Numbered from the stretch's first letter, positions 2,604 through 49,956 are shown. The stretch: DNA of 50,055 bases from a virus (IMGVR_UViG_3300037474_000056:1-50055); one strand, 5' to 3'. Numbers and translations are program-made. Notes: generated from the letters alone by a model not told the origin.

Positions 2604-2947
2604 TGCCCTGGGTGAAGCTCGACGACACGTTCTGGATGAACCCGAAGATCGTCATGGCCGGCGAAGCCGCCGCCGGGGTCTTCGCGCGGATGCTCGCGTA
2701 CTGCGGGTGCTACATGACCGACGGGCTGGTCCCCGCGCCCATGGTCGAGGCGATCACGAAGAACAAGAAGGCCCTGGACGCGCTCGAGGAGAACGGGCTC
2801 ATCACCCGGTACGAGACCGGGACCGTCTACATCCCGAAGTACCTCGAGTACAACCGGTCCAAGCAGGAGCTGGAAGCGGATCGCAAGCAGCGCCGCAACA
2901 ACGGCGCGCGGGGTGGCCGGCCCAGGAAGGTCGAAACCGGGCCGTGA
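2603..2947 (+). CDS. RepA-like replication initiator, N-terminal domain
   Basis: MPWVKLDDTFWMNPKI...TDGLVP...YLEYNRSK, typical of actinophage RepA-like proteins; followed directly by iterons. Confidence 0.75.
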   Translation: MPWVKLDDTFWMNPKIVMAGEAAAGVFARMLAYCGCYMTDGLVPAPMVEAITKNKKALDALEENGLITRYETGTVYIPKYLEYNRSKQELEADRKQRRNNGARGGRPRKVETGP

Positions 2948-3051
2948 ACCGACTCGCCTACCGAACCGCTAACCGACTCGGATACCGACTCGGTTTCTGC
3001 GAGCTAACCGAGTCGGTTAGCGGGCCGGATACCGACTCGGGTACCGAGTCG
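2948..3051. repeat. Iteron array, putative replication origin
   Basis: ACCGA(C/G)TCG-like units at 2948, 2960, 2972, 2984, 3007, 3031 and 3043 (about 12-bp phase); palindrome GCTAACCGA-G-TCGGTTAGC at 3003-3021. Confidence 0.75.
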
Positions 3052-3237
3052 CCTCACGTGCGCGCGATCGCGGCCTGTCCTGTCCTGTCCAGGCCTTTCC
3101 AGACCTGCCCTGTCCCGAGGGCCTTCCACACATGGATGGGATTGAACTTTCAGAACGGCAACGGCCCTTTCTGCTGTGAAAGCGAAGTTGAGGGCTCCGC
3201 GCCCGTCACTGGTCAAGCGAAGGAGGAATCGGCTGCG

Positions 3238-3645
3238 ATGAGTCGGCGCATTCCACGTCGTGGCGTCCGCCACCCGCACGAAGCGGTCAAGCAGGCCCGC
3301 GAGCTCTACGAGGGCGGATGGACTGACGGGCAGATCGTGCGCATCCTCGGCTGCCGCGGCTACGAGGTGACCAAGTCCAGCGTCCGCCGCTGGACCCGCC
3401 CGAAGGCAGCTGAGGCGAGCTTGCGCCACACCCGCAAGCGCGCCCGGGGCCTGTCCGGCCGGCTCGGGTCGGGTCGGCACTCGGTGGAGTATCAGGAGAC
3501 CAGGGTCAGGGCGCTCGCCGCGCAGGGCGTGACGTACCTCAACATCGCCCGGGTGATGGCGTTCGACTACCCGGACAGCACTTGGAATGACGACCGGGTC
3601 CGCAAGATCGTTGGTCCGTCCCGAGCGCGAAAGGTGGCAGCGTGA
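3238..3645 (+). CDS. Tandem HTH DNA-binding protein
   Basis: AAGGAGG RBS; two HTH-like segments. The ORF could extend upstream to the GTG at 2944. Confidence 0.6.
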   Translation: MSRRIPRRGVRHPHEAVKQARELYEGGWTDGQIVRILGCRGYEVTKSSVRRWTRPKAAEASLRHTRKRARGLSGRLGSGRHSVEYQETRVRALAAQGVTYLNIARVMAFDYPDSTWNDDRVRKIVGPSRARKVAA

Positions 3646-4379
3646 GCAACTGCTTCTACGCCGGCCGCCCCGTCCGCCTCCCGGTCCTGTCCGTCCGCTG
3701 GCTCGAGGAGTCCTGCAACGGGCGGACTCGCAGCCCCAGGATCACCGAGCGGGGCTACCGTCGCGGCGTCAAGCCCGGCAACTACGGCAAGAAGTACCCG
3801 CCGGAGCCGCTCACGCCGCAGGAGGTGCTGCGCCTCCTTGACGCGATCCCCAACACGAAGGCGGGTATCCGGAACCGGGCGCTGATCGCGGTGCTGTGGC
3901 GGACTGGTTTGCGGATCGAGTGCGAGGCGCTCCGGCTGCTGCCGCATCACCTGGACTTCGACGCGAAGCGGGTTACGGTGCTCAGGGGCAAGAACGGCAA
4001 GCGCCGGATCGTCGCGCTGGACAGCTTCGCGATCACGCACCTGTCGCCGTGGCTGTGGGAGCGCGCCCGCCTCGGCATCCCGGACACCGCCCCGCTGTTC
4101 TGCTCGGTGTCGCAGCCAAACCCGGGGCGGCCGATGTGGAGCGCCTATGTCCGTGAGGTGATGCACGAGTATGGCCGCCGGGCCGGCATCCCGAAGCGCA
4201 TCCACCCACACGGGTTCCGGCACTCGATGTGCTGCGACCTGATCCGGGAGGGCTTCCCGCTGTCGCACGCCCAGGCCCAGCTGGGCCACTCGAGCATCGC
4301 GACGACGGCGATCTATGCCCGGGGGTTGGGGGCGGATGAGGCGTTCAATGAGATCGCGCAGCGGGAGGTCCCGCGATGA
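3642..4379 (+). CDS. Tyrosine recombinase, catalytic domain only (FimB/FimE-like architecture)
   Basis: TGLRI (R), GKNGK (K), HPHGFRH (HxxR), LGHSS (H), TAIY (Y); no full core-binding domain. Confidence 0.9.
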   Translation: MSNCFYAGRPVRLPVLSVRWLEESCNGRTRSPRITERGYRRGVKPGNYGKKYPPEPLTPQEVLRLLDAIPNTKAGIRNRALIAVLWRTGLRIECEALRLLPHHLDFDAKRVTVLRGKNGKRRIVALDSFAITHLSPWLWERARLGIPDTAPLFCSVSQPNPGRPMWSAYVREVMHEYGRRAGIPKRIHPHGFRHSMCCDLIREGFPLSHAQAQLGHSSIATTAIYARGLGADEAFNEIAQREVPR

Positions 4380-4606
4380 GCGATCTTGTCGGGCCTGGCA
4401 GCCACTTCGAGGGGCACCGACCCCCTGGGAGCACGGGGCGCGTGCAGGCCTCTGAGGTGGCCGCTGAGCGTGACCGGTACATCCGGGCGTTCAACCGGCT
4501 GGAGAAGGCGGTCACGAACCACATCAAGGACCGCTGTATCGACAGCGACGACCTAGAGCACGTTCACCGAGTGGTGCTCCGGGATCTAGCGGAGGGCACG
4601 CGATGA
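4376..4606 (+). CDS. Hypothetical protein
   Basis: ATGA-coupled on both sides. Confidence 0.65.
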   Translation: MSDLVGPGSHFEGHRPPGSTGRVQASEVAAERDRYIRAFNRLEKAVTNHIKDRCIDSDDLEHVHRVVLRDLAEGTR

Positions 4607-5277
4607 GCCAGCTTCGCAACGAACTCGACAGAGGATTCGCGGTGTCCGAACTCGGCCTGTGGGAAAGCACGCTGATCCCCGCCGAGGGCGGCACTGTCAG
4701 CCGCGTCAAGCGGCACGCCGACTACAAGCGCGAGGATCGTGGCTACGACACGCCCTGCTGGATCTGGCAGCGTTACGCCCACACGAGGGGATACGGCTAC
4801 GTGACCCTCGACGGCGTCTCACGGCTCGCTCATCGCGAGTACTTCCGCCGCGCCTACAACGTCGACATCACGGGGATCGACGTGCACCACAAGTGCCACG
4901 TCACGCTGTGCGTCAACCCGGACCACCTCGAGGCCAAGGACCGCGTCAGCCACCTGGCCGACCACAAGCAGGAGGCGTCCACGCTCGAGTGGGAAGACAT
5001 CCGGGCTATCCGTTCCCGGGCGTTCGAGGGCGCCGCGGCGCTCGCCCGGGAGTACGGCGTCACGCACCAGTACATCAGCCTGATCCTCACTAACCAGCGG
5101 TGGGTCGACGCGGCCTACGCGCCGGCGAGCACCGAACTGACGTGCGCCCGTCCTGGCTGCGACCGGACGTTCACGCCGCGCACGGCCATGGCGCGGTTCT
5201 GCGGGACTCGCTGCCGCAATCTGCACAACAACCGTGTCGGCTCGGGCTACTACGAGCGGCGGGGGATTGCCGCATGA
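4603..5277 (+). CDS. HNH endonuclease
   Basis: CWIWQ...LAHR...HHKCHVTLCVNPDHLE; C-terminal HTH and FCGTRC Zn motif. Confidence 0.85.
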   Translation: MSQLRNELDRGFAVSELGLWESTLIPAEGGTVSRVKRHADYKREDRGYDTPCWIWQRYAHTRGYGYVTLDGVSRLAHREYFRRAYNVDITGIDVHHKCHVTLCVNPDHLEAKDRVSHLADHKQEASTLEWEDIRAIRSRAFEGAAALAREYGVTHQYISLILTNQRWVDAAYAPASTELTCARPGCDRTFTPRTAMARFCGTRCRNLHNNRVGSGYYERRGIAA

Positions 5278-5957
5278 GCGAGATCCGCGAAGAACTCACG
5301 CTAGGAATCGCGCCCTACTACGCCGACGATCGCGTGGCGATCTACCACGCTGACAGCCGCGAACTGCTGCCCGTGAAGCCGCTCGAGGCGCTGCTGCTGT
5401 CCGACCCGCCCTACGGCATGGACTACGAACACGGCGCCCGCAAGGGCGGCCGGAAGATGGGCATGGACGGCCACAGCATCGTCGGCGATCAGGAGCCATT
5501 CGACCCGTCGCACCTGCTTGCGTACCCGCGAGCGATCCTTTGGGGCGCCAACCACTACAGCCACCACCTGCCCGCCATGCGCGGCTGGGTGATCTGGGAC
5601 AAGCGCGATGGGACCCCGTCGAACGATCAGAGCGACTGCGAGCTGGCCTGGACCAACATCCTGTCCGTCGCCCGTGTGTTCAGCGCCCGCTGGTCGGGCG
5701 GCCACCGCACCGGCCGGGAGCAGCGCGAGGGGCGCCTGCACGTCAACCAGAAGCCCGTCGCGCTGATGGGCTGGTGCATCCGCCTGGCCGGCGACGACGC
5801 GCTGATCCTCGACCCGTACATGGGCAGCGGGTCCACGCTGGTTGCCGCACGCGAGCTGGGCCGCAAGGCGATCGGGATCGACATCGAGGAGGCGCACTGC
5901 TTCACCGCCGCACAGCGGTTGTCGCAGGGGTGCCTGGACTTCGGGGAGGCGGCGTGA
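5274..5957 (+). CDS. DNA methyltransferase (N6-A/N4-C, beta class)
   Basis: DPPY catalytic motif, HVNQKP, and LDPYMGSGST SAM-binding motif. Confidence 0.9.
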   Translation: MSEIREELTLGIAPYYADDRVAIYHADSRELLPVKPLEALLLSDPPYGMDYEHGARKGGRKMGMDGHSIVGDQEPFDPSHLLAYPRAILWGANHYSHHLPAMRGWVIWDKRDGTPSNDQSDCELAWTNILSVARVFSARWSGGHRTGREQREGRLHVNQKPVALMGWCIRLAGDDALILDPYMGSGSTLVAARELGRKAIGIDIEEAHCFTAAQRLSQGCLDFGEAA

Positions 5958-6328
5958 ATCCTCAGGAGCTTCGGAAGGAGACCAGCGTGACTGACAAGTT
6001 CTTCGGCCGGTCCGGAGCCGACCTCATCGCCGCCGAGCGCCAGCGTCAGATCGATCGGGAAGGCTGGACGGCCGAGCACGACGATCAGTGGGAAGACGGC
6101 GAGCTGCGCAAGGCCGCTCGCGTCTACCTCCAATGGGTTGGCGCCACCTACATCAACCGGGTCGACTCGGAGGGGCGGCGAGCCGTGCCTCCCGGCTGGC
6201 CGTGGGACCGGGAGTGGTGGAAGCCCAGCGAGGATGTCAGGGCGGATCTGGTCAAGGCGGGTGCGCTGATCGCGGCTGAGCTTGACCGTCTCAACCGCCA
6301 GAACTACGGGGGCGGCGCGAATGGGTGA
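5954..6328 (+). CDS. Conserved phage helical protein
   Basis: IAAERQRQIDREGWTAEHDD...WPWD..WWKP...DLVKAGALIAAELDRL, a widespread phage domain of unknown function. Confidence 0.75.
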   Translation: MNPQELRKETSVTDKFFGRSGADLIAAERQRQIDREGWTAEHDDQWEDGELRKAARVYLQWVGATYINRVDSEGRRAVPPGWPWDREWWKPSEDVRADLVKAGALIAAELDRLNRQNYGGGANG

Positions 6329-6572
6329 GACGCTGCCAAGCACGGCCTACGAGTGGCGAGAGCCTGGGCGTGACGGCGACGTCTACCGGTCGCTGGTGTC
6401 CGTGTGGTTCTGGGACCGCGACTGCCCGCACGAGGGCGACGAACCGCGCGTCTGTGTCACCTGCGAGGACCGGGAGTACGACTTCACTGCCTCTAGTGGG
6501 CTGAGCCTGGCGCAGGCGGCTGAGCTTCGCGATGCCCTGTCGAGATGGATCGAACGAGGCGGGCGATCGTAG
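6321..6572 (+). CDS. Hypothetical protein
   Basis: Start overlaps the upstream stop; coupled to the next gene. Confidence 0.6.
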   Translation: MGETLPSTAYEWREPGRDGDVYRSLVSVWFWDRDCPHEGDEPRVCVTCEDREYDFTASSGLSLAQAAELRDALSRWIERGGRS

Positions 6573-6820
6573 TGCTTAGAAGGCGAAGCGATACTCCCGG
6601 CATCCTCGAGCGAGCCTGCGTGTGCGGCCATGACCACACGACGCACCGTGGCGAGGAAGTCCACTACTGCCTGGAGTGCTCCTGCTCCGAGCACATCCCG
6701 CGCTGCCAGAACTGCGGCGAGGAGTCCACGCTGGCGCGGCTCAACAGCCGCTTCGACGTCTGCTCCCGGCGTTGTGCCCTCCAGCTCGAGTACGCCGCGA
6801 CGCGGGAGATTCCAGCGTGA
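6572..6820 (+). CDS. Cys/His-rich Zn-binding protein
   Basis: CVCGH..H...CLECSC and CQNC...CSRRC. Confidence 0.65.
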   Translation: MLRRRSDTPGILERACVCGHDHTTHRGEEVHYCLECSCSEHIPRCQNCGEESTLARLNSRFDVCSRRCALQLEYAATREIPA

Positions 6821-6990
6821 GTCTCCACCGCCTCAGGCTAAGCCTGCCCCGCACCGCCCCTGACGGCCGGCGAGACCTCGACCTAGAGATCCGTGCGTTC
6901 GGCCGGCGCTACCACTCCATCGGACGTCCGATGTGGGTCCTCTACGGCGCCCTGGCGTGGCTGTTCAACCGGCATGGGTGGGATCGCTAG
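6817..6990 (+). CDS. Hypothetical protein
   Basis: GTGA overlap with the previous gene. Confidence 0.55.
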   Translation: MSLHRLRLSLPRTAPDGRRDLDLEIRAFGRRYHSIGRPMWVLYGALAWLFNRHGWDR

Positions 6991-7014
6991 GTGCCCAGCA
7001 AAAGCTCGCGAGCA

Positions 7015-7049
7015 TTGACACACCGGTACCGGTACCGTAATCTACCGGT
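7015..7049 (+). promoter_or_regulatory. Sigma70-type promoter for a leaderless mRNA, with ACCGGT operator repeats
   Basis: TTGACA (7015-20), 17-bp spacer, TAATCT (7038-43), ATG at 7050; ACCGGT repeated in the spacer and at 7044-49. Confidence 0.8.
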
Positions 7050-7322
7050 ATGGACAAGTACTTCGATCGTGATGGCAAGCCCATCACCTACATGCAGTGG
7101 ATGGGCCTCATGTCCGCCGGCAACGGTGTCGCTCGAACCGAGTTCGATGGCGGCTCCGTCTCAACGATCTGGCTCGGCAATGACCACGGCGCCGGCGACG
7201 GTGCGCTTTTCGAGACTGCCGTGTTCTACGACGACATCGACCGGCGCAACGACACCTACCGGTGGAAGACGCTCGCCGAGGCAGAGGTCGGCCATGCCCG
7301 CGTCGTCAAAGAGGTGTCGTGA
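7050..7322 (+). CDS. Hypothetical protein (leaderless)
   Basis: Follows the promoter; GDGALFETAVF...Y...AEAEVGH. Confidence 0.75.
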   Translation: MDKYFDRDGKPITYMQWMGLMSAGNGVARTEFDGGSVSTIWLGNDHGAGDGALFETAVFYDDIDRRNDTYRWKTLAEAEVGHARVVKEVS

Positions 7323-7462
7323 TGCCTCCTGTTCGTATCGAATTCACCGTCCCGCAGGAGACGTACGAGCGCATCGAGGCGGCGCGCGGGTTAGTGCCGC
7401 GCGCCGCGTGGATCAAGGCGCTGATCGACCGCGAACTCAAGGAGCAGACCGACGATGAATGA
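7322..7462 (+). CDS. Ribbon-helix-helix DNA-binding protein
   Basis: VRIEFTVPQETYERIEAARGLVPRAAWIKALIDREL: a beta strand followed by two helices. Confidence 0.75.
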   Translation: MPPVRIEFTVPQETYERIEAARGLVPRAAWIKALIDRELKEQTDDE

Positions 7463-7574
7463 GCACTGCAAGCACTGCGGCAACGGCGGCATGGTCTGCC
7501 TCTTCTTCGACCACATCACCAAGCGCGCGGGCATGTACTGCCGGACCTGTAAGCGGTGGCTGAACGATGCCTGA
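7455..7574 (+). CDS. 39-aa Zn-ribbon protein
   Basis: Read manually: CKHC...CRTC; overlaps both neighbours. Confidence 0.55.
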   Translation: MNEHCKHCGNGGMVCLFFDHITKRAGMYCRTCKRWLNDA

Positions 7575-7740
7575 TTCTCAGTCGCTTCCGGATCGCAGCG
7601 ACGGGACGCTCACGGCTTTGATCGCGGTCGGCTTCGTCGCGCACGGAGCGACCAACCGGGGCGCCTGGAGGGTCGCGTATCACCTCGGCGGCGGCGACCT
7701 GCTGGAGCCGGCGCCGCGACTCATCCTGTCCACCAACTGA
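7567..7740 (+). CDS. Hypothetical protein (57 aa)
   Basis: Read manually; ATGCCTGA coupling to the previous gene. Confidence 0.5.
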   Translation: MPDSQSLPDRSDGTLTALIAVGFVAHGATNRGAWRVAYHLGGGDLLEPAPRLILSTN

Positions 7741-7754
7741 CCGGAGACGACGTA

Positions 7755-8243
7755 ATGGACCTTTCCGAGCGTCCCTGGCAGAGCTGGTACATCTTCGTCT
7801 GCCCGAAATGCTTCGCCCGCGTCAACAGCGGCGAGGAGTCCCCGCCGCTCTGCGGCATGCACTTCCCTGAGGAGGTGCGGACGAAGCTGGTCGAGGTCGT
7901 GCCGAAGCCCACCCGGGGGGCCGTAGACCGCGAGGAGGCGGTCAAGGCGATGCAGCGCGCGATCCTCAGCGAGTTCGGCTGGGGGCTGGCGCTCAGCGGC
8001 AGGGAGACGCGCCTGCGGCGACTCGCCGAGGTTGCGGTGGACGCGCTTCCCCCTGCCCGGGGGGGCGTGTCGCCTGAACTGGTGCGCGATCTTGGCTCCG
8101 CGTGGCGCGCGGACGACGGCGCGGCGATCGCGCTCGCTATCGCACGGCTGGAAAACGCGGCCGGCCTGAGCGAGCAAGGCGACCCGCCACCCACCGCGGG
8201 GGCCTTCACTGCTGTTCTTGACGAGGAGGACGCAGATGGCTAA
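7755..8243 (+). CDS. Hypothetical protein with N-terminal Zn motif
   Basis: GGAG RBS; CPKC...CGMH. Confidence 0.65.
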   Translation: MDLSERPWQSWYIFVCPKCFARVNSGEESPPLCGMHFPEEVRTKLVEVVPKPTRGAVDREEAVKAMQRAILSEFGWGLALSGRETRLRRLAEVAVDALPPARGGVSPELVRDLGSAWRADDGAAIALAIARLENAAGLSEQGDPPPTAGAFTAVLDEEDADG

Positions 8244-8400
8244 GCCACAGTCTCCGCTCTGCCAGTGCGGGCACTCCCGCGGGTGGCACGCCGCGGGCTG
8301 TCGCCGGTGCTCCTGCTCGGAGTTCCGTGTGCCGGACCTGATGGCCGCGCTCAAGGCGTCGCTCGATGCTGCTGCTTCCCGAGAGGAGGACGCCAAGTGA
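8236..8400 (+). CDS. Small Zn-binding protein with Ku-like C-terminal helix
   Basis: GAGGAGG RBS; CQCGH..H..CRRCSC followed by VPDLMAALKASL. Confidence 0.65.
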   Translation: MAKPQSPLCQCGHSRGWHAAGCRRCSCSEFRVPDLMAALKASLDAAASREEDAK

Positions 8401-8678
8401 TCGCCTGGGCGCCTCGTAAGGGAGTCGCCGGCCCGTGGCACGTGTCGCTTCAGGACGGCCAATACCCGGCCATGTCCCTTTGCGGTGTTCGTGTGCAAGG
8501 CGTCGAGCGCTACGTCAAGCGAGACCCGCACAAGATCGACGACTACCGCGGCGAGCGCTGCAAGCCGTGCTGGCGTGAGTGGCGCATGATGACTGCCGCC
8601 TCGTACGCCAAGCAGGACCAGCACGAATCTGCTGCTTCCCCGAGGACTCTCCCTGATCGAAAGGACACCGATGCGTGA
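8397..8678 (+). CDS. Hypothetical protein
   Basis: GAGGAGG RBS, GTGA overlap; WH...LCG...CKPC. Confidence 0.65.
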   Translation: MIAWAPRKGVAGPWHVSLQDGQYPAMSLCGVRVQGVERYVKRDPHKIDDYRGERCKPCWREWRMMTAASYAKQDQHESAASPRTLPDRKDTDA

Positions 8679-8937
8679 GAAGCCCCTAGACGCCCTGCTG
8701 GACTCGATCGAGACGCTGGACGTCAACAAGATCAGCGGCGTAATCAAGCGCTTGGAGTCGGTGTCGCAGCAGAACCCCGGTCTCATCTTTCACGAGGTGG
8801 ACAAGGCCAAGCACAAGATCGAGGCTGCGATCCAAGATCTCATCGCGGCCCAAGGCGAGCTGCAACGCGCGGTCGGCCGCGTAGTCGTGAAGCAGCACCG
8901 CGAGCGGCCCCGTGAGGAGGCGATGCCCCGTGCCTAG
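8671..8937 (+). CDS. Helical hypothetical protein
   Basis: AAAGGA RBS; coupled to neighbours. Confidence 0.65.
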   Translation: MREKPLDALLDSIETLDVNKISGVIKRLESVSQQNPGLIFHEVDKAKHKIEAAIQDLIAAQGELQRAVGRVVVKQHRERPREEAMPRA

Positions 8938-9184
8938 CGAGCTTCCTCGTCAAGGCTCCGGAGACTGGGCGTTCATCGGGACCACCGCCGAAGGCGTGGA
9001 GGTGCGCGTCGAAGGTGAGCCCTACTCGCCCCGCGTCTGGCTGGACGGCGTCGAGGTCGCGGTGACGGGCATGCCGCAGCTTCTCCGCGATGGGGGTACG
9101 CGACACATCCCGACTGAGCGCGGGAGGCTGACACTGCCGCACCGGATCGGCAATCCTGACCGGACGCCGAGGCTCGCGTCATGA
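8930..9184 (+). CDS. Hypothetical protein
   Basis: GAGGAGG RBS; GTGCCTAG overlap. Confidence 0.6.
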   Translation: MPSELPRQGSGDWAFIGTTAEGVEVRVEGEPYSPRVWLDGVEVAVTGMPQLLRDGGTRHIPTERGRLTLPHRIGNPDRTPRLAS

Positions 9185-9366
9185 CTAGCCAAAGCACGAC
9201 TATTTCGATCACGGTCAAGCAGGGTGTGCGCGGTATGGGCTGGGTGTGGTCGGTCCAGCGGGTCGATCCTCATCCGGTTGAGCAGCTCGGCGGTGGCGTG
9301 GCGGGCACGCGGCAGGAGGCGTGGGCTGATGTGGCGTCGGTGCTTTACGACCAGGGCGATGCATGA
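9181..9366 (+). CDS. Hypothetical protein
   Basis: ATGA-coupled. Confidence 0.6.
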   Translation: MTSQSTTISITVKQGVRGMGWVWSVQRVDPHPVEQLGGGVAGTRQEAWADVASVLYDQGDA

Positions 9367-9626
9367 TGAGCTCAGCTCAAAGCACGCGAGAACGTTTGAC
9401 CGACCCGCAAGTCTGCGTTCTTCGCGCCGTCCAGGTCATGCAGGACGGCCCCGATGAGTACGGCCACGACGCAGAGGGCGACCTGAGCCTCTGGTCGGGG
9501 AACCTCACCCACACGCTCCGGGTGCTGCGCCGGCGTGGGCTGATCGAGGACTACGACGTGATGGAGCCCGACATGTACTACACGAACGTGCGCCTCACGG
9601 CGGCGGGGCGGGAGGCGCTCCGGTGA
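9363..9626 (+). CDS. Winged-helix-like protein
   Basis: LTDPQVCVL...TLRVLRRRGLIE...VRLTAAGREAL. Confidence 0.6.
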   Translation: MMSSAQSTRERLTDPQVCVLRAVQVMQDGPDEYGHDAEGDLSLWSGNLTHTLRVLRRRGLIEDYDVMEPDMYYTNVRLTAAGREALR

Positions 9627-9808
9627 GCTCATCACGAAGCAGCGGAGATGCACTGACCACCGTCGTCACTTACGACGCCGAGGCACGGGCCTCCTATCAG
9701 CAGTTGCGCGATCTGCCGGTGGCGTACACCCGTGAAATGTGGGAGGGCGTGTTCTACGACTTCGCCGCTGACGGCTCCGTGGTCGGAATCGAGCGTCTGT
9801 ATGCCTGA
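9623..9808 (+). CDS. DUF2283-like small protein
   Basis: VTYDAEARASY..L...T.E....FYDFAADGSVVGIE pattern. Confidence 0.7.
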   Translation: MSSSRSSGDALTTVVTYDAEARASYQQLRDLPVAYTREMWEGVFYDFAADGSVVGIERLYA

Positions 9809-10076
9809 CTCGCTCACAACGCAAAGCAGCGGAGACGATCTGACCCATGGGGAGATCCCGCGCGACTTCTGGCGCGAGATTCCCTGCGGCCATCCGCCCG
9901 ATCCCGTTGCCGCCTTCGCGAGTTGTGCTGGCTGCTCGGCGGGGCACTGGGTCTGCCATTGCGGATGGCAGCTCAACGTCGCCGAGGCGCTTCCCGAGCG
10001 CCTACCCGAGGCTCCCGGCCCGATCGTGCTGTGCGGGAAGTGTGGTTGCTACGTGGCGGTGCCCGATGCCGTCTGA
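9801..10076 (+). CDS. Cys-rich Zn-binding protein
   Basis: CGH, CAGC, CHCG and CGKCGC motifs. Confidence 0.6.
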   Translation: MPDSLTTQSSGDDLTHGEIPRDFWREIPCGHPPDPVAAFASCAGCSAGHWVCHCGWQLNVAEALPERLPEAPGPIVLCGKCGCYVAVPDAV

Positions 10077-10428
10077 GAACCGCGAGGGGCTACAGGACAG
10101 CAAGCGAGAGCTGCGCTTCGAGGGCGTCGTGGACTACTGGGAAGGCGGGCTGCTCGACGTCGGACCGCGCATCGGTGAGCGCGACGTCATCGGGGAGATC
10201 GAAGAACTCTGGCCCTGGTCGTCCTCCAGCAGCAAGGACCGCGAGGTTCGAGTCACGCTCGGGGTCGAACCGCTCGCGGAAGGGCCGCTTTGGGCAATCC
10301 ACGGCTTCGGCGGCACGGACGTCACTCCGCCCGAGTCGCCAGAGATCACGGTTGGAGACTTCGACCTCCTCAAGCGCCTCTACGACCTCGACGGGCGCGA
10401 CGTGATCCTGATCGTGGAGGACGTCTGA
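10066..10428 (+). CDS. Acidic hypothetical protein
   Basis: Start overlaps the upstream gene; normal codon usage. Confidence 0.65.
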   Translation: MPSENREGLQDSKRELRFEGVVDYWEGGLLDVGPRIGERDVIGEIEELWPWSSSSSKDREVRVTLGVEPLAEGPLWAIHGFGGTDVTPPESPEITVGDFDLLKRLYDLDGRDVILIVEDV

Positions 10429-10463
10429 GGCCATGTCGCTTTCACGCGGCAGCAAGCGAGGCC

Positions 10464-10682
10464 ATGCCTGACGGCAACGTCATAGGGTTGCCCGTCCGCG
10501 AGCCGGAACGCTACGTCACGCGCAGCGAGCTCGCCGGACTCATGGGCGTCTCTTTGCGCCAGGTCGACGCTTGGCGCAAAGACGGGATGCCGTGCGAGAC
10601 ATGGGGGCTCCGAGTGGTTAGGTTCCAGCCGAGCCGCGCCATGGCCTGGGTGCGGCAGAACGCCCACAAGGAAGCCGCATGA
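10464..10682 (+). CDS. Excisionase (Xis-like HTH)
   Basis: YVTRSELAGLMGVSLRQVDAWRKDGMP...VRF; lies upstream of the integrase. Confidence 0.75.
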   Translation: MPDGNVIGLPVREPERYVTRSELAGLMGVSLRQVDAWRKDGMPCETWGLRVVRFQPSRAMAWVRQNAHKEAA

Positions 10683-10828
10683 CCGACCTCGAACGCGCAC
10701 TCTCCGAACTGCGAGCCGCTATCGCCAGGGAGCTACGCAACGGCGGCGCCCACTTTTTCGTCGGCGTGTGGGTCGGGATGCTGATCATGTTCATCGCGTT
10801 CGTCGCTACTCAAGGCTGGCCGTCGTGA
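10679..10828 (+). CDS. Small membrane protein (49 aa)
   Basis: Read manually; hydrophobic FFVGVWVGMLIMFIAFVAT; ATGA/GTGA coupled. Confidence 0.6.
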   Translation: MTDLERALSELRAAIARELRNGGAHFFVGVWVGMLIMFIAFVATQGWPS

Positions 10829-11880
10829 TCCAGCGCCGCCCCAACGGCCGGTACGCCGTCACCGTCTACGACCCCGCCCTCAAGCGCCGCCGGCAGGTCG
10901 GCACGTACGACAAGCTCCGGGACGCCCGCAAGGCAGAAGCCGAAGCCAAAGCGGAGACCCGGAGCGCGGACCGCGAGACCGTCGCGGCGTTCGCCGCCCG
11001 CTGGACCACTGATTTCCCGCGGCCGAAGGTCAGCACGAACCTGCACAACGCCGAACGCGTCAGCGAGTTCGCGCGCCTCCACGCCCGGACCGCCATGAGC
11101 GATGTGACCGCCAAGACCGTCGACCGGTATCTCTCAGCGGACCCGCGCCGCAAGCAGCGCGTCCCCGCGCTCCGCGCGATGTTCAACGACGCCCGCCGCC
11201 GCGGCATCACCACCCACAACCCTTTCGCTGACCTCGGCCTGCCGACGACCCGCGGGAACCGGGACACGCCTCCCCCGTCACAGGACCACATCGCGGTCAT
11301 GCTCGAGCACGCCTGGAACCTCACGCCGCCCACATTCGCGGCGTGGCTGACGTTCGGCGTCTACACGGGGATGCGGCCCGGGGAGCTCGACGCGCTGCAC
11401 CGTGACCGCATCGACCTTGAACGCGACGAGGTCCATGTCACCGAACAGTGGAGCGTTGGGGCGAGGGACTTCACGCGCCCCAAGAACGGCAAGACCCGCG
11501 TGATCGCGTTGACCCCGCCCGCCAGGGACGCGTTCCTGCGCATCCCCCGGGAGTCGCAGTTCGCGTTCACGACGTTGCGCGGCACCCACTACACGCCATC
11601 GTCCCGGTCGTTCCACTGGAACCGGGTCCGTGCCGCCGCCGGCCTGCACGACAAGACCCTGTACCTCTGCACGCGGCACTTTGCGGGCTGGTACCTGCTC
11701 AACGTGCTCGACATGGACGCCCCCGTTGTGGCGCACCAGTTGGGGCATGAGGACGGTGGCCGTGAGGTGGAGCGGACGTACGGGCACCGTGAGCGCGCCC
11801 GGTCGTTGGAGAAGATCAAGCGGGCGTGGGCGGCCGAGGTCCGGCCGTTGCGCGCCGTGGACCGGAGGGACACCGCATGA
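10825..11880 (+). CDS. int: Phage tyrosine integrase
   Basis: N-terminal arm-binding-like region; TGMRPGEL, PKNG, TRH, LGH, RTY catalytic motifs. Confidence 0.92.
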   Translation: MIQRRPNGRYAVTVYDPALKRRRQVGTYDKLRDARKAEAEAKAETRSADRETVAAFAARWTTDFPRPKVSTNLHNAERVSEFARLHARTAMSDVTAKTVDRYLSADPRRKQRVPALRAMFNDARRRGITTHNPFADLGLPTTRGNRDTPPPSQDHIAVMLEHAWNLTPPTFAAWLTFGVYTGMRPGELDALHRDRIDLERDEVHVTEQWSVGARDFTRPKNGKTRVIALTPPARDAFLRIPRESQFAFTTLRGTHYTPSSRSFHWNRVRAAAGLHDKTLYLCTRHFAGWYLLNVLDMDAPVVAHQLGHEDGGREVERTYGHRERARSLEKIKRAWAAEVRPLRAVDRRDTA

Positions 11881-12161
11881 GCCTCGTTGATGACTGGAAC
11901 GAGCACTGCCCCACGTGTCGGATGCCGCTGGTCGAACGCACCGTGACGTGGGGTCCGCCGCCTGACGGGCTCGTCGAACAGGGCGCCGATGGCGTGCGCG
12001 TCACGGCGATCATCGGACGCGTACCGAAGCGCATCGAGGTCACGTGCTCAAGTGGCCACAGGTTCACCGCGCAGACGCATGAGTGGTCCATCGACCGGGG
12101 CCACCGGTATCGCGGATTGGCTCCAGTAGGTAGCCACGAAGGTAGCCAAACCGCTGATTAG
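11877..12161 (+). CDS. Zn-ribbon hypothetical protein
   Basis: ATGA overlap; CPTC...CSSGH. Confidence 0.55.
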   Translation: MSLVDDWNEHCPTCRMPLVERTVTWGPPPDGLVEQGADGVRVTAIIGRVPKRIEVTCSSGHRFTAQTHEWSIDRGHRYRGLAPVGSHEGSQTAD

Positions 12162-12336
12162 CAGGCAAAATGCCCTGTCTCCCCGACCTAAACCCCGCTG
12201 TTGCAGCCAAATGCACAGCACCGCACCGACGCAGGCGCAACCCGCGCCACAGCGTCAATCCTCACGCAGCAGGGCCGAACCGCACAGTCCGCGGCCAGGC
12301 CCGTGTAGGTAGCCACGTAGGTAGCCGCCGGCTACC
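12126..12336. other. Putative attP with integrase arm-type sites
   Basis: GTAGGTAGCCACGAAGGTAGCC (12126-47), GTAGGTAGCCACGTAGGTAGCC (12305-26) and an inverted GGCTACC (12330-36), flanking about 155 bp downstream of int. Confidence 0.75.
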
Positions 12337-12380
12337 CATCCACCCCCGTCTAAGGCTCAATAGCGAGCATCGGAGGCCCC

Positions 12381-46319: not shown

Positions 46320-46577
46320 ATGGAATCCCCCCGACGCTGGAGCCGCCATATGCACGCAATGCCGATGATTCAGCTCCCCCAAAACGAAGCGTGCGCCCGG
46401 GGGTGTGAGATCGTGGCGGCATCGGCGCAGGCCGTGGGGGAGGCGACGCCTGGACCGGACGCGGACTTGTTCTTGGAGCTCGCCGATGGTCTCAGGCGGC
46501 AGGCCGCCACTCTGCGGGGAGGGCGTCCAGGAGACTCCCGGTGCTCTTCCGCGCGTCTTCGTCTGGTGCGGGGATGA
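46320..46577 (+). CDS. Hypothetical protein convergent with the repressor
   Basis: GGAGG RBS; overlaps the 3' end of the repressor gene. Confidence 0.4.
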   Translation: MESPRRWSRHMHAMPMIQLPQNEACARGCEIVAASAQAVGEATPGPDADLFLELADGLRRQAATLRGGRPGDSRCSSARLRLVRG

Positions 46578-46950
46578 GCGCGAGCGCGGCGAGGATCATG
46601 TCGAGTTTTCGTTCGATCGCGTCTAGCTGAGATCGGCTCTCGTCCGGGGCCATAACCCCGGCTAGATCTGGGGTCTTGGTCTTGTCCGGCTCAGACATCA
46701 TGAAGTAGCTCACCGGAACGCCGAGAACGCCGGCGAGCGACTCGAGGGCGTCATCGCGCGGCCGGTTCTTACCGCGCTCCCATAGAGAGATCCGGTTGTG
46801 CGTGATCTTGCCCGGCATGCGACGGGCGACGTCGTCCTGCGTGAGGCCAAGTTCCTCGCGGCGGTCGCGGATGCGCGCGCCCATTCGCTCTAGGTACTCG
46901 GCGGCCATGAGTTCGAACCTACGGGCGGCCAGGCTCTTTGTCTTTGTCAT
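46492..46950 (-). CDS. CI-like XRE repressor
   Basis: RIRDRREELGLTQDDVA...ISLWERGKNRP....LAGVLGV; divergent from the Cro-like gene. Confidence 0.88.
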   Translation of the reverse strand: MTKTKSLAARRFELMAAEYLERMGARIRDRREELGLTQDDVARRMPGKITHNRISLWERGKNRPRDDALESLAGVLGVPVSYFMMSEPDKTKTPDLAGVMAPDESRSQLDAIERKLDMILAALALIPAPDEDARKSTGSLLDALPAEWRPAA

Positions 46951-47623: not shown

Positions 47624-47867
47624 ACTCTCCGACGCGATGGTCACCGTCGTCCTGTTCTGGGCGTACGCGTGCGGCGTCACCCTCATCGTGCTCGGCGTGG
47701 TGTGCGCGTACTACTGGCTCGAGGAGCACTCCAACCCGGTCACGGACTGGTGGGTTGGCCGGCATCGCAAGCGCGCGCTGGCGGAGATCGATGCGCTGTA
47801 CGGCATCCCGGTGATGGACGGGAGCGAGTGGCCCTCGTGGCCGTCGTCGCGTGAGGGGGCGATCTAG
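47616..47867 (+). CDS. Membrane protein
   Basis: Long N-terminal hydrophobic segment. Confidence 0.6.
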   Translation: MSELSDAMVTVVLFWAYACGVTLIVLGVVCAYYWLEEHSNPVTDWWVGRHRKRALAEIDALYGIPVMDGSEWPSWPSSREGAI

Positions 47868-48146
47868 GTGCCTGGACAGACAAGCACGCGAGAATGGCTG
47901 GCCGAGGCGCTGATCGTCGGCACGTTCAGCAGCAGGTGCGGCGCGTGCGGGCGCGGAGCGTTCCCGAGCGACGAGACGCACGACCGCCTCGCCGGCTACG
48001 GCTGCGCTGGCGAAGCCACTGACTGTGGCGTCCGCTGGCGGTTCGTGACCACCGACTACGCCGGGCCGCACATGGAGGAGGCGACGCGCAACCTGCGTCC
48101 CGACCTCGAATGGCGGCCGCTGTTCCCTGACACGAGGGCCGCGTGA
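47868..48146 (+). CDS. Cys-containing hypothetical protein
   Basis: GAGGGG RBS; CGAC...H...CG. Confidence 0.65.
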   Translation: MPGQTSTREWLAEALIVGTFSSRCGACGRGAFPSDETHDRLAGYGCAGEATDCGVRWRFVTTDYAGPHMEEATRNLRPDLEWRPLFPDTRAA

Positions 48147-48388
48147 TGCAGGAGCCTCGTCAGGAAAGCAGCGGAGAATTCGGGCGCTACCAGTGCCTGT
48201 GCGCTGAGGGGTTCCCGGAGGCTTGCCCGTGCCGCGAGGGTGAGGTTGAGGCCATGCGTCGCGTCCTCAGTTCTGCCGACGGCACCGTGGAGCCGTGGGC
48301 CGACCACCACTACAGGGCGGAGGCGTGCGCCGCCCTGCGTGTTCTGTTCGAGGAGGGCTACGTGCTCGTGGAGCGGCCCGATGCCTAG
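48143..48388 (+). CDS. Hypothetical protein
   Basis: GTGA coupling. Confidence 0.6.
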   Translation: MMQEPRQESSGEFGRYQCLCAEGFPEACPCREGEVEAMRRVLSSADGTVEPWADHHYRAEACAALRVLFEEGYVLVERPDA

Positions 48389-48800
48389 CGAGAGCCGCCA
48401 AGAAAGCACGCAGTTGCAGAAGGCTGCGCCGTGTGAGCACGCCTTCCAGCACCACCCGATGTCCGACGACTTCGGCGTCTGCTCCAAGTGCGGTGCCGAG
48501 GAGGACTTCGACGCGCCATCCACTGAGGGCGGCGCATCCCGCGACGAGCAGCCGACCGGCCGCGAGTGCCCGTACTGCGGGTGCCACTTCCGGCGCCTGT
48601 CCGACGAGCGCGGCCACAACTGCGCGGCCGGGCAGCGGATGCGGGACGCCGCCCTCACCGCCAGCGGGGGGGCCGTATCGGCTGGCGATCTCGACCGACT
48701 GCTTCGCGACGTGGACGCCTACTTCGCGGGCGCTCATGTCAACGCGGGCGTGGTGATCGGCCAGATCCGGTCGCGGATCAAGGGGTTGCCCGATGCCTGA
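48381..48800 (+). CDS. Zn-binding hypothetical protein
   Basis: CEH...CSKCG and CPYCG...HNC. Confidence 0.65.
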   Translation: MPSESRQESTQLQKAAPCEHAFQHHPMSDDFGVCSKCGAEEDFDAPSTEGGASRDEQPTGRECPYCGCHFRRLSDERGHNCAAGQRMRDAALTASGGAVSAGDLDRLLRDVDAYFAGAHVNAGVVIGQIRSRIKGLPDA

Positions 48801-49092
48801 TTCCCGCGTGCTTCGGGACAAGACCTCCCTGTCGACGCGACAGCGTCAGGTGCTCACGTCGGTGTACCGCTGCGGTCCCTGCGCCAGCACCGAATACCAC
48901 GTCTGGAAGCAGGGCCGGACGCTCGGGTTCTGGAGTGCGCTGGCGCTCTACGACCACCTCAAGAAGCTGACCGACCGTGGCTACCTGACCCGCTCCGGCG
49001 GGCGGGGTAGCTACCAGTACCGGCTCACAGAGAAGGGCGCGGACGCGATCAACGCGAGGTTCCTCACGAGTCCGTGGGAGGGCAGCGACTGA
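48793..49092 (+). CDS. LexA-N-like winged-helix protein
   Basis: LSTRQRQVL...LYDHLKKLTDRGYL.R...YRLTEKG. Confidence 0.65.
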   Translation: MPDSRVLRDKTSLSTRQRQVLTSVYRCGPCASTEYHVWKQGRTLGFWSALALYDHLKKLTDRGYLTRSGGRGSYQYRLTEKGADAINARFLTSPWEGSD

Positions 49093-49630: not shown

Positions 49631-49956
49631 GGCCGTTCCGCAACCGGCACGAGTACGGCGAGACGTACGCGCAGTACGAGCAGCGCGCGCGTGACCGCGC
49701 CGACACCGTCCACACCGAGGACCTCCCCGGCGACCATGAGGCTGCGTACGCGCCGGTGCCGTGGTGGGCGATCGACCCGTCTTTCAAGCTTGCGCCTGTC
49801 CCGATGCCCTCTCACTTGCTCGGGTCGCGCAAGAACCCCGCCGCGCTCTCCTCAGGTCATGGAACCCCACGCGGCGGTGGGCAAGACGCGCGGCCGGCCG
49901 GCTTGGGGGGATCTCGCCGGCTGGCCGCGCACCCCTCCACCAAGGAGGCAGCGTGA
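49627..49956 (+). CDS. Hypothetical protein
   Basis: ATGA/GTGA coupled; ends in KEAA like many genes in this genome. Confidence 0.55.
   Translation: MRPFRNRHEYGETYAQYEQRARDRADTVHTEDLPGDHEAAYAPVPWWAIDPSFKLAPVPMPSHLLGSRKNPAALSSGHGTPRGGGQDARPAGLGGSRRLAAHPSTKEAA

Follow-up and report, generated by a model that had tools for sequence, protein, structure and literature searches.

Features of the Locus

The viral DNA stretch IMGVR_UViG_3300037474_000056:1-50055 (50,055 nucleotides, hereafter the window) was analysed for a repeated DNA element lying within the first codons of small accessory genes, and for a gene at 3642-4379 encoding a small tyrosine recombinase, the candidate enzyme for this element. 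The window is the whole contig of a temperate tailed soil phage, with a terminal overlap of 164 nt. Genes for cI (46492-46950, minus strand), cro, a replication initiator, xis, an integrase, a terminase, a portal protein and a capsid protein were annotated in it. The plus strand carries nearly all of the genes, and neighbouring genes overlap by 1-14 nt. Judging from the named homologues of the recombinase, the host would be a Solirubrobacterales-type actinobacterium. The locus L125 (the same phage, 100% over 11,328 nt) and L222 were left out of all analyses.

The features are listed below, with the strand where one was assigned. Ranks were obtained among 50,032 window positions with a matrix built from sites upstream of homologous recombinase genes, referred to as the independent matrix.

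3642..4379, plus strand: second tyrosine recombinase, 245 aa, with a catalytic domain and an N-terminal coil of ~50 residues
4603..4634: left half-site at the HNH gene start; rank 46
5960..5991: 5' site of gene 5954, left half fair and right half weak; rank 590
6566..6597: best site, at the start of gene 6572, with the GTG start within the left arm; rank 1, score 23.6
7001..7013, plus strand: right half-site of the short frame starting at 6991, heading a self-contained insert with gene 7050
7576..7607: 5' site of gene 7567; rank 19; centre identical to that of the L552 site
8037..8068: intragenic left half-site or RGAV-type linker in gene 7755; rank 1,832; recognised only after the breakpoint had been seen
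8366..8397: inverted (3') site at the end of gene 8236; rank 32; homology block of a related contig from 8371
8626..8657: inverted (3') site at the end of gene 8397; rank 65; contig match ends at 8644
8933..8964: 5' site of gene 8930; the related contig shares the start, left arm and centre (8932-8953) and then has other sequence
9191..9648, plus strand: right half-sites of genes 9181, 9363 and 9623, with cores at 9192, 9380 and 9637
9804..9835: 5' site of gene 9801; rank 26
10097..10109, plus strand: weak right half-site of gene 10066, supported by the window matrix and not by the independent matrix (rank 10,860)
10430..10461: body-less site immediately 5' of xis, within a frame of 12 codons (10433-10471); rank 5
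10825..11880, plus strand: phage integrase of 351 aa, downstream of xis (10464-10682); included as context and as a candidate rival of the 3642 enzyme
47862..48833, plus strand: second array after cro, with genes 47868, 48143, 48381 (half-site) and 48793; ranks 91, 100, 3,953 and 596

The 3642 protein matched PF00589 with 122 bits and belongs to the tyrosine recombinase superfamily. The residues R87, K117, H190, R193, H216 and Y225 were invariant in 50/50 close homologues. The predicted model had a pTM of 0.79, with XerA as the best fold match and residues 1-58 forming a coil. No core-binding or arm-binding domain was found; the matches to XerC/D/A began at residue ~50 as against profile position ~100, and the protein scored below the cut-offs of the XerC, XerD, XerA, IntI and FimB/E models. 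According to PMC8138268, even simple tyrosine recombinases are defined as a core-binding plus a catalytic domain. The recombinase family is therefore unusual in lacking a core-binding domain. In addition, L552:605-1350 holds a gene-start site, a 22-codon frame and a reversed recombinase gene; the recombinase gene too may move in cassette form.

Gene-Start Sites in the Window

A preliminary description of this DNA had proposed frame-locked inverted-repeat sites at the starts of most small genes downstream of the recombinase. All the sequences and coordinates quoted there were present in the window, as were the exact repeats (AAGCAGCGGAGA at 9637, 9824 and 48166; AAGCACGCGAGA at 9380 and 47882). 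A scan of 1,422 frame-aware 5-mers over the first 45 nt of 87 called genes, made without that list, gave AAGCA in frame 2 as the top word (8 genes vs 0.41 expected, p 1e-8), in agreement with the single reading frame described. Furthermore, AAGC[AGT] occurred in the starts of 9/30 accessory genes and 0/57 other genes (Fisher 2.8e-5), and in 1/239 deeper windows of the same genes. A-ending codons, also named in the preliminary description, stood at the arm edge in 11/16 cases vs 5.7% genome-wide. For the 14 window sites anchored on the right half only, pairing was maximal at the 8-nt GCTT/AAGC gap, with 44/84 bases vs 15-24 at 13 other gaps, and the left core GCYY was present at half of them (7/14, vs a background of 2.5%). 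In the leave-one-out test, which was biased because its anchors were hand-picked, ten of the 16 held-out sites were outscored by at most 14 of 100,042 positions, and 6338 failed. The motif in the window is real, and most of its copies are degenerate or half-sites.

Several parts of the preliminary description had to be narrowed. About half of the small genes carried a site, rather than most of them: 10 of the 21 genes called within 4376-10428, in addition to two short open reading frames (6991, 10433). The arms, described as inverted repeats, paired in 1-8 of 13 positions in the window against a background mean of 3.6, with seven or more in only 5/21 sites. The weak copy at the HNH gene (4603) had a fair left half at rank 46 and was retained, whereas that at the methylase gene (5274) scored poorly with the independent matrix. 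Among the right-arm-only copies, 9192, 9380 and 9637 were kept as half-sites and 6338 and 10098 scored poorly; the doubtful copies at 5274, 6338, 10098 and 48404 ranked from 3,953 to 11,019. Two groups of copies were absent from the earlier account, namely the second array after cro (47868-48833) and the inverted copies near the 3' ends of genes 8236 and 8397 (8372, 8632). The phase of these 3' copies is the codon-register mirror of the 5' sites.

The window sites lay 11-32 nt past the start codon with a fixed gap, inside overlapping and coupled reading frames. The peptides at the sites differed (TPPGRS, ELPRQG, VLRRRS), and synonymous positions were fixed. The body-less site at 10433 and the site at 7002, before the insert with a promoter-like stretch, argue for a role at the DNA level. 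Otherwise, the sites might serve CI or Cro as operators, be acted on by the phage integrase or by XerCD of the host, or encode an N-terminal peptide that the proteins need. The frame is indeed fixed, the phage encodes its own integrase, and a weak match (rank 9, score 5.8) lies between cI and cro. However, no strong copy was found at cI/cro or in the putative attP stretch, the peptides are not constant, and non-coding DNA ahead of homologous recombinase genes also contains the motif. This set of explanations was considered very improbable. An operator or stoperator of CI/Cro was rejected on the scores, the best cI-cro match being far below the 23.6 at 6572 and none exceeding 8.4 with the window matrix.

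Some features adjoin individual sites. A possible ribosome site that would serve a GTG further downstream overlaps the site at 5960..5991. After the half-site at 7002, TTGACA, 17 nt and TAATCT were seen by eye together with a repeated ACCGGTA, a promoter-like arrangement directly 5' of gene 7050. A possible DNA-binding regulator of 46 aa (7322) follows gene 7050, and 7014-7462 looks like a self-regulated insert. In the one stretch submitted to a promoter scan, no promoter or terminator was called, and this included the promoter-like stretch before gene 7050.

Palindrome Upstream of Homologous Recombinase Genes

Loci of homologous recombinases were chosen by protein alone, and 144 of them had enough upstream DNA. 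In 41/144 loci, GCTT-N8-AAGC with at most one mismatch lay no more than 260 nt 5' of the conserved PPEPL codon. Seven other gaps gave 8-13 loci each, gap 4 gave 22, and control windows gave 32/424. Many of these upstream sites were clean palindromes, whose outer arms varied between loci yet remained complementary (12/12 positions in L086; 11/12 in L030, L166 and L092). In 22 well-paired sites, the outermost gap position, for which no selection had been made, paired in 16, and the inner three paired in 4-5, which indicates a geometry of ~11-6-11. The six-base unpaired centre of the preliminary description was thereby confirmed.

The matrix built from 21 upstream sites placed the window site at 6572 at rank 1 of 50,032, and eight further named window sites fell in the top 100 (ranks 5, 19, 26, 32, 46, 65, 91 and 100). 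The GCTT/AAGC core of this matrix had been selected for and is circular, and the flanks had not. By these comparisons, the proposed link between the site and the enzyme family is well supported.

The position of the palindrome could also suggest that the recombinase-family protein is mainly a DNA-binding repressor, for which the palindrome before its own gene would be autoregulatory and the early-gene copies would block or tune transcription. In many homologue loci the clean sites lay ~10-70 nt before the start codon, which is the expected place of a promoter; several had an extra half-site ~45 nt upstream, and the window site at 7002 stands just 5' of the promoter-like stretch. A repressor does not account for the invariant catalytic residues, and an operator requires no single reading frame, no shared centres and no module edges at the site. 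We regard this explanation as improbable. Resolvases commonly repress and recombine at one site, so both roles can coexist. The loci with the extra half-site were L072, L061, L073, L077, L080 and L166, and the arrangement is like that of resolution sites with accessory repeats.

Gene-Start Arrays in Other Elements

A blind 5-mer scan of the homologue loci picked out AAGCG in frame 2 in L008 and L523 and AAAGC, in the same phase, in L006 and L007; words in other loci were flagged too. In L008, six consecutive genes with 4-nt overlaps carried the site at offset 17. Gene-start sites were likewise found in L523, L006, L012, L002 and L088. The left arm in the array loci reads (A/G)TGACGCTT and so holds the stop-start overlap, which is ATGA or GTGA in these relatives. 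L012 carries the GAGCTT form, as in the window.

Pairs of strict gene-start sites on one strand occurred in 5/8 loci with a recombinase match of at least 175 bits, in 2/122 loci below this score and in 0/40 GC-rich controls. No such pair was found at gaps 5 and 11. The test counted loci of at least 5 kb; seven shorter close-homologue loci stayed uncounted, six of which had no strict site. The co-occurrence of arrays with the recombinase clade, a check suggested in the preliminary description, follows the closest homologues by score. The placement of the array downstream of the recombinase did not hold, because the relatives have the gene before, after or opposite the array. Moreover, L006, L007, L008, L012 and L523 appear unlike tailed phages, with small membrane proteins and an ATPase, so that the pairing of site and enzyme crosses element types.

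These elements have further common traits. In L006, L007, L008, L010, L012 and L523, the small recombinase lies on the opposite strand, and the main genes tested had no Pfam family names. They are related elements and may be an undescribed group of non-tailed viruses. Elements of the L006 type share a further strong site, with an identical 8-nt centre in L006, L012 and L130.

Loci were also picked by motif. The first scan of viral contigs gave 12 loci, comprising 11 unrelated loci and L125, and the second gave 55 loci with no array among them. RTGACGCYT-N8-AAGCG had 38 matches in 401 genomes of the host order, single in 35 genomes and three on one contig of G462. That contig also has the best recombinase match, and the test is partly circular, since the pattern drew on it. 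No array was found at the ten singleton loci inspected.

Module Edges and Shared Centres

A 1,242-nt contig of a related phage from another study (X2) matched the window at 8057-8204, 8371-8644 (with 280 other letters between) and 8932-8953. Of these edges, 8371 falls in the left arm of a 3' site, and 8644 coincides with the final base of the central six in the 3' site that follows. The edge at 8953 is 2 nt beyond the centre of the 8930 site, and the contig differs from there on. Three of the five edges thus fell in sites known beforehand (p 0.0014; 0.004 vs positions near gene ends). The edge at 8057 follows a GCTT half-site that was seen afterwards, and that at 8204 ends a different linker. 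Among the proteins, homologues of gene 8397 diverged at the 3' site (P0137, 76% over residues 1-80, and P0138), and the match of P0122, the closest homologue of gene 9801, began at the right arm. P0146 strings several modules together at RGAV-type linkers, and its homology, like that of the related contig, begins at 8057 within gene 7755. The evidence on module edges comes from one contig and a few proteins.

Centres were also shared between elements. L088 and L008 have three starts and centres in common, nearly the same and in the same order, with unrelated bodies. Among 45 sites of 11 elements, 16 pairs of near-identical 8-nt gaps (at most one mismatch) were found between elements vs 3.4 expected (0/2,000 shuffles), these pairs not being independent of descent. 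When the paired gaps were not identical, 10/15 differed at position 1 or 8 alone, outside the central six.

Another explanation of the same edges is that the sites arose as targets of the recombinase family and are now 20-30-nt boundary sequences, at which bodies are swapped by homology or microhomology recombination. Half-sites make up most of the window copies, and the X2 junctions are compatible with either mechanism. In addition, the related 5' ends of genes 8930 and 48143 differ by one full codon, module edges also fall at the low-complexity RGAV-type linker (8204; P0146), and L550 has the site with no recombinase found in the part examined (57% complete). However, this explanation does not account for six successive L008 genes having retained both arms with the gap unchanged, for the arrays following the recombinase, or for the gathering of changes between matching sites outside the central six. 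It was judged unlikely, although it was given more weight than the repressor.

The linker forms a second type (CGGGGGGCCGT-like, with the peptide RGAV or GGAV) at 7910, 8057, 8195, 48519 and 48656. These linkers sit inside the multi-module genes 7755 and 48381, and they mark domain swaps in the X2 contig and P0146. An atlas search with gene 7755 gave only leads below 0.9. The body of gene 9801 (9801-10076) is a mobile Cys/His-rich domain with no Pfam or PHROG family; in 15 homologues it is found by itself or attached behind many different N-termini.

Host dif and dif-like Arrays

The dif of the host order was GC[TAG]CGATAA-N6-TTATG in 61/81 genomes (59/79 without the unpublished G431 and G444), and in G076 it was located opposite dnaA. 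It agrees with the actinobacterial type of dif given in PMC3025954. Its centre was variable and it usually occurred in one copy; G028 had 11 matches and G416 had five, some clustered like pdif arrays. TGCTT-N8-AAGCA was not conserved across five genomes. The motif as a mimic of the host dif was rejected, since the dif of the order (the host itself being taken from homologues) differs.

The body of gene 9801 was also found in small GC-rich phages (15-21 kb). GATAA-N6-TTATC, in one frame and at gap 6 only, stood in accessory-gene starts of such phages: four genes in L296 (equal to L225 and L305), three in L436, four in L437 and one or two in L297 and L439. The phages L296, L297, L436, L437 and L439 are related to one another. 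L297 and L436 yielded a tyrosine recombinase; none was found in L296, L437 and L439, whose records are incomplete. GATAA-N6-TTATC resembles a doubled XerC arm, which makes the host Xer a candidate. The comparison shows that more than one site sequence gave rise to frame-locked, recombinase-type sites at gene starts.

Other features of the phage concern its integration, replication and termini. The repeated GTAGGTAGCCAC at 12100-12340, after the integrase gene, is likely to form the arm sites of attP. The ACCGACTCGG-like iterated and inverted repeats at 2935-3058, after the initiator gene, are likely to be the replication origin. Within the terminal overlap a few letters differ between 1-40 and 49892-49931, and positions 31 and 38 carry other letters in the X1 and X2 contigs; there may therefore be a misassembly at the very start of the window. 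Single-protein searches of viral contigs with the recombinase and the integrase as queries gave no close relative, and a DNA search of 401 genomes of the class gave short chance matches only.

Comparison with Known Recombination Systems

Shufflons (Rci, sfx) and the FimB/FimE invertases have a tyrosine recombinase, sites inside the frame and products in frame, and FimB/E are also about 200 aa. Here, the sites are mostly direct repeats heading many separate genes, and the bodies differ between viruses instead of being inverted. An invertase was rejected on 50 bits vs the cut-off of 222 for the invertase models, and the array genes are all on one strand. In Cre-loxP and resolvase-res systems, one enzyme acts on a symmetric site by its gene and the identity of the centre decides the pairing. 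The present sites differ from these, and from cassette exchange with non-matching lox sites, in having a 6-bp instead of an 8-bp centre and many degenerate natural copies in genes.

Integrons are similar in combining a tyrosine recombinase with an array of unrelated single-gene units parted by related sites, and the additional half-site ahead of the core in several family loci is a further likeness. Integrons are chromosomal or plasmid-borne, whereas the sites described here are viral palindromes of ~28 bp inside coding sequence. As an IntI the 3642 protein was rejected, since TIGR02249 gave 76.7 bits vs a cut-off of 265 and the match fell in two stretches; it breaks where the IntI-specific insertion lies, as described in PMC8138268. 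The attC type was rejected as well, since the sites pair in 1-8 of 13 positions and no long inverted repeat stood at gene junctions among the 25 longest listed.

The pdif/dif modules of Acinetobacter plasmids (XerC/XerD) resemble the arrays in that 11-6-11 sites flank accessory genes; the pdif sites are partly in inverse orientation and vary in their centres, according to PMC9455709. The 11-6-11 geometry was found here too, with inverse 3' copies in only 2/30 accessory genes. In contrast to pdif, the site is symmetric, is not the host dif and overlaps start codons, and the enzyme is element-encoded and has no core-binding domain. The GATAA-N6-TTATC arrays of the small phages are closer to the pdif model.

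The PeSL, SAS/ESAS and lambdoid boundary sequences are also repeated elements heading non-essential phage genes. The PeSL of T4-type phages are swap points and yield mini-circles (PMC2839356), and the ESAS of cluster K mycobacteriophages contain imperfect inverted repeats (PMC3203893). Unlike the present sites, all of these precede the start codon, act as promoters/terminators or in translation, and have no recombinase tied to them. ESAS spacers of 4-13 bp contrast with the fixed gap and the in-frame position found here. An identity with SAS/ESAS (a 13-bp SAS 5' of the start, 17-bp repeats and a variable spacer) was rejected on the position of the sites after the start codon and their fixed gap. 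An identity with PeSL (a promoter and a terminator stem-loop between genes) was rejected because the sites lie within coupled frames and no promoter or terminator was called in the stretch scanned.

Taken together, the system would work most like an integron or a pdif array, and like a shufflon in keeping the frame, and it departs from each of them in the defining tests. The full-text literature search, to which most subscription papers were out of reach, yielded no description of such sites or of such an enzyme-site pair.

Proposed Exchange of Gene Bodies

It is probable, on comparative grounds, that the motif is a worn 11-6-11 palindrome of the small tyrosine recombinase family, and that the member at 3642-4379 recombines these sites and so exchanges accessory gene bodies between viral genomes. 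The 3642 protein would bind the arms, and strands would cross over within the central 6 bp. The start codon lies in the left arm or ahead of it, and the 5' sites have a single phase; a crossover would therefore supply any body with a start and keep both the frame and the translational coupling. Accessory gene bodies would be swapped, added or dropped in this way. The recurring central 6-mers may serve as matching codes, determining the sites between which exchange is possible, and with the inverted copies near some 3' ends a double crossover would be able to replace one body alone. Many of the window copies may be decayed relics. The recombinase-driven cassette model of the preliminary description is supported in part, on comparison (the family palindrome, the 6-bp centre, the arrays with the closest homologues and the edges).

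Several observations weigh against this exchange. In the window itself, the sites are weak and most are too worn to be sure substrates still, and no strong site was found 5' of the recombinase gene (the best nearby had rank 7 and a score of 6.9). The upstream site was absent from 103/144 homologue loci. In the tree (FastTree, deep support weak), the window clade stands apart from the clades of L006, L008, L523, L002 and L007, and of the 49 closest homologues (48-78%) only L001 was among the compared loci, with its upstream DNA only. Arrays were lacking in a large chromosomal-island clade (L525-L538); L010 has a close homologue and no site, and the three L524 sites are heterogeneous and may be due to chance. 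Conversely, within the DNA examined, the recombinase family was present in only 2/23 motif-picked viral loci, most motif hits being chance singletons, and in 0/5 further whole records, including the partial L550, which shares the L088 site. Several phages with dif-like arrays show no recombinase, so such arrays may do without a dedicated enzyme. The non-independence of the gap pairs counts here as well. Finally, no site-to-site joint, deletion or circle was found in the assembled contigs of X1 or X2, which hide rare forms.

The mosaicism of phages is usually attributed to illegitimate or homology-driven recombination followed by selection. If the proposed exchange is true, a named enzyme, a defined site and a matching rule would make up a directly testable site-specific route. 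It would also explain the arrays of tiny unrelated genes with look-alike N-termini, and it would offer a way to divide such genes into modules, together with a compact recombinase for which many variants of the site exist naturally. Should the exchange model fail, the family palindrome would still stand as a concrete result. On a broader view, to which we give about an even chance, the viruses of soil actinobacteria run a natural cassette exchange by means of a minimal tyrosine recombinase and palindromes in the first and some last codons of accessory genes, in which the arm includes the stop-start overlap and the 6-bp centre is the matching code, with bodies and domains traded among tailed phages and unrelated elements while frame and translational coupling are kept, and with a parallel dif-like version that probably uses the host XerC.

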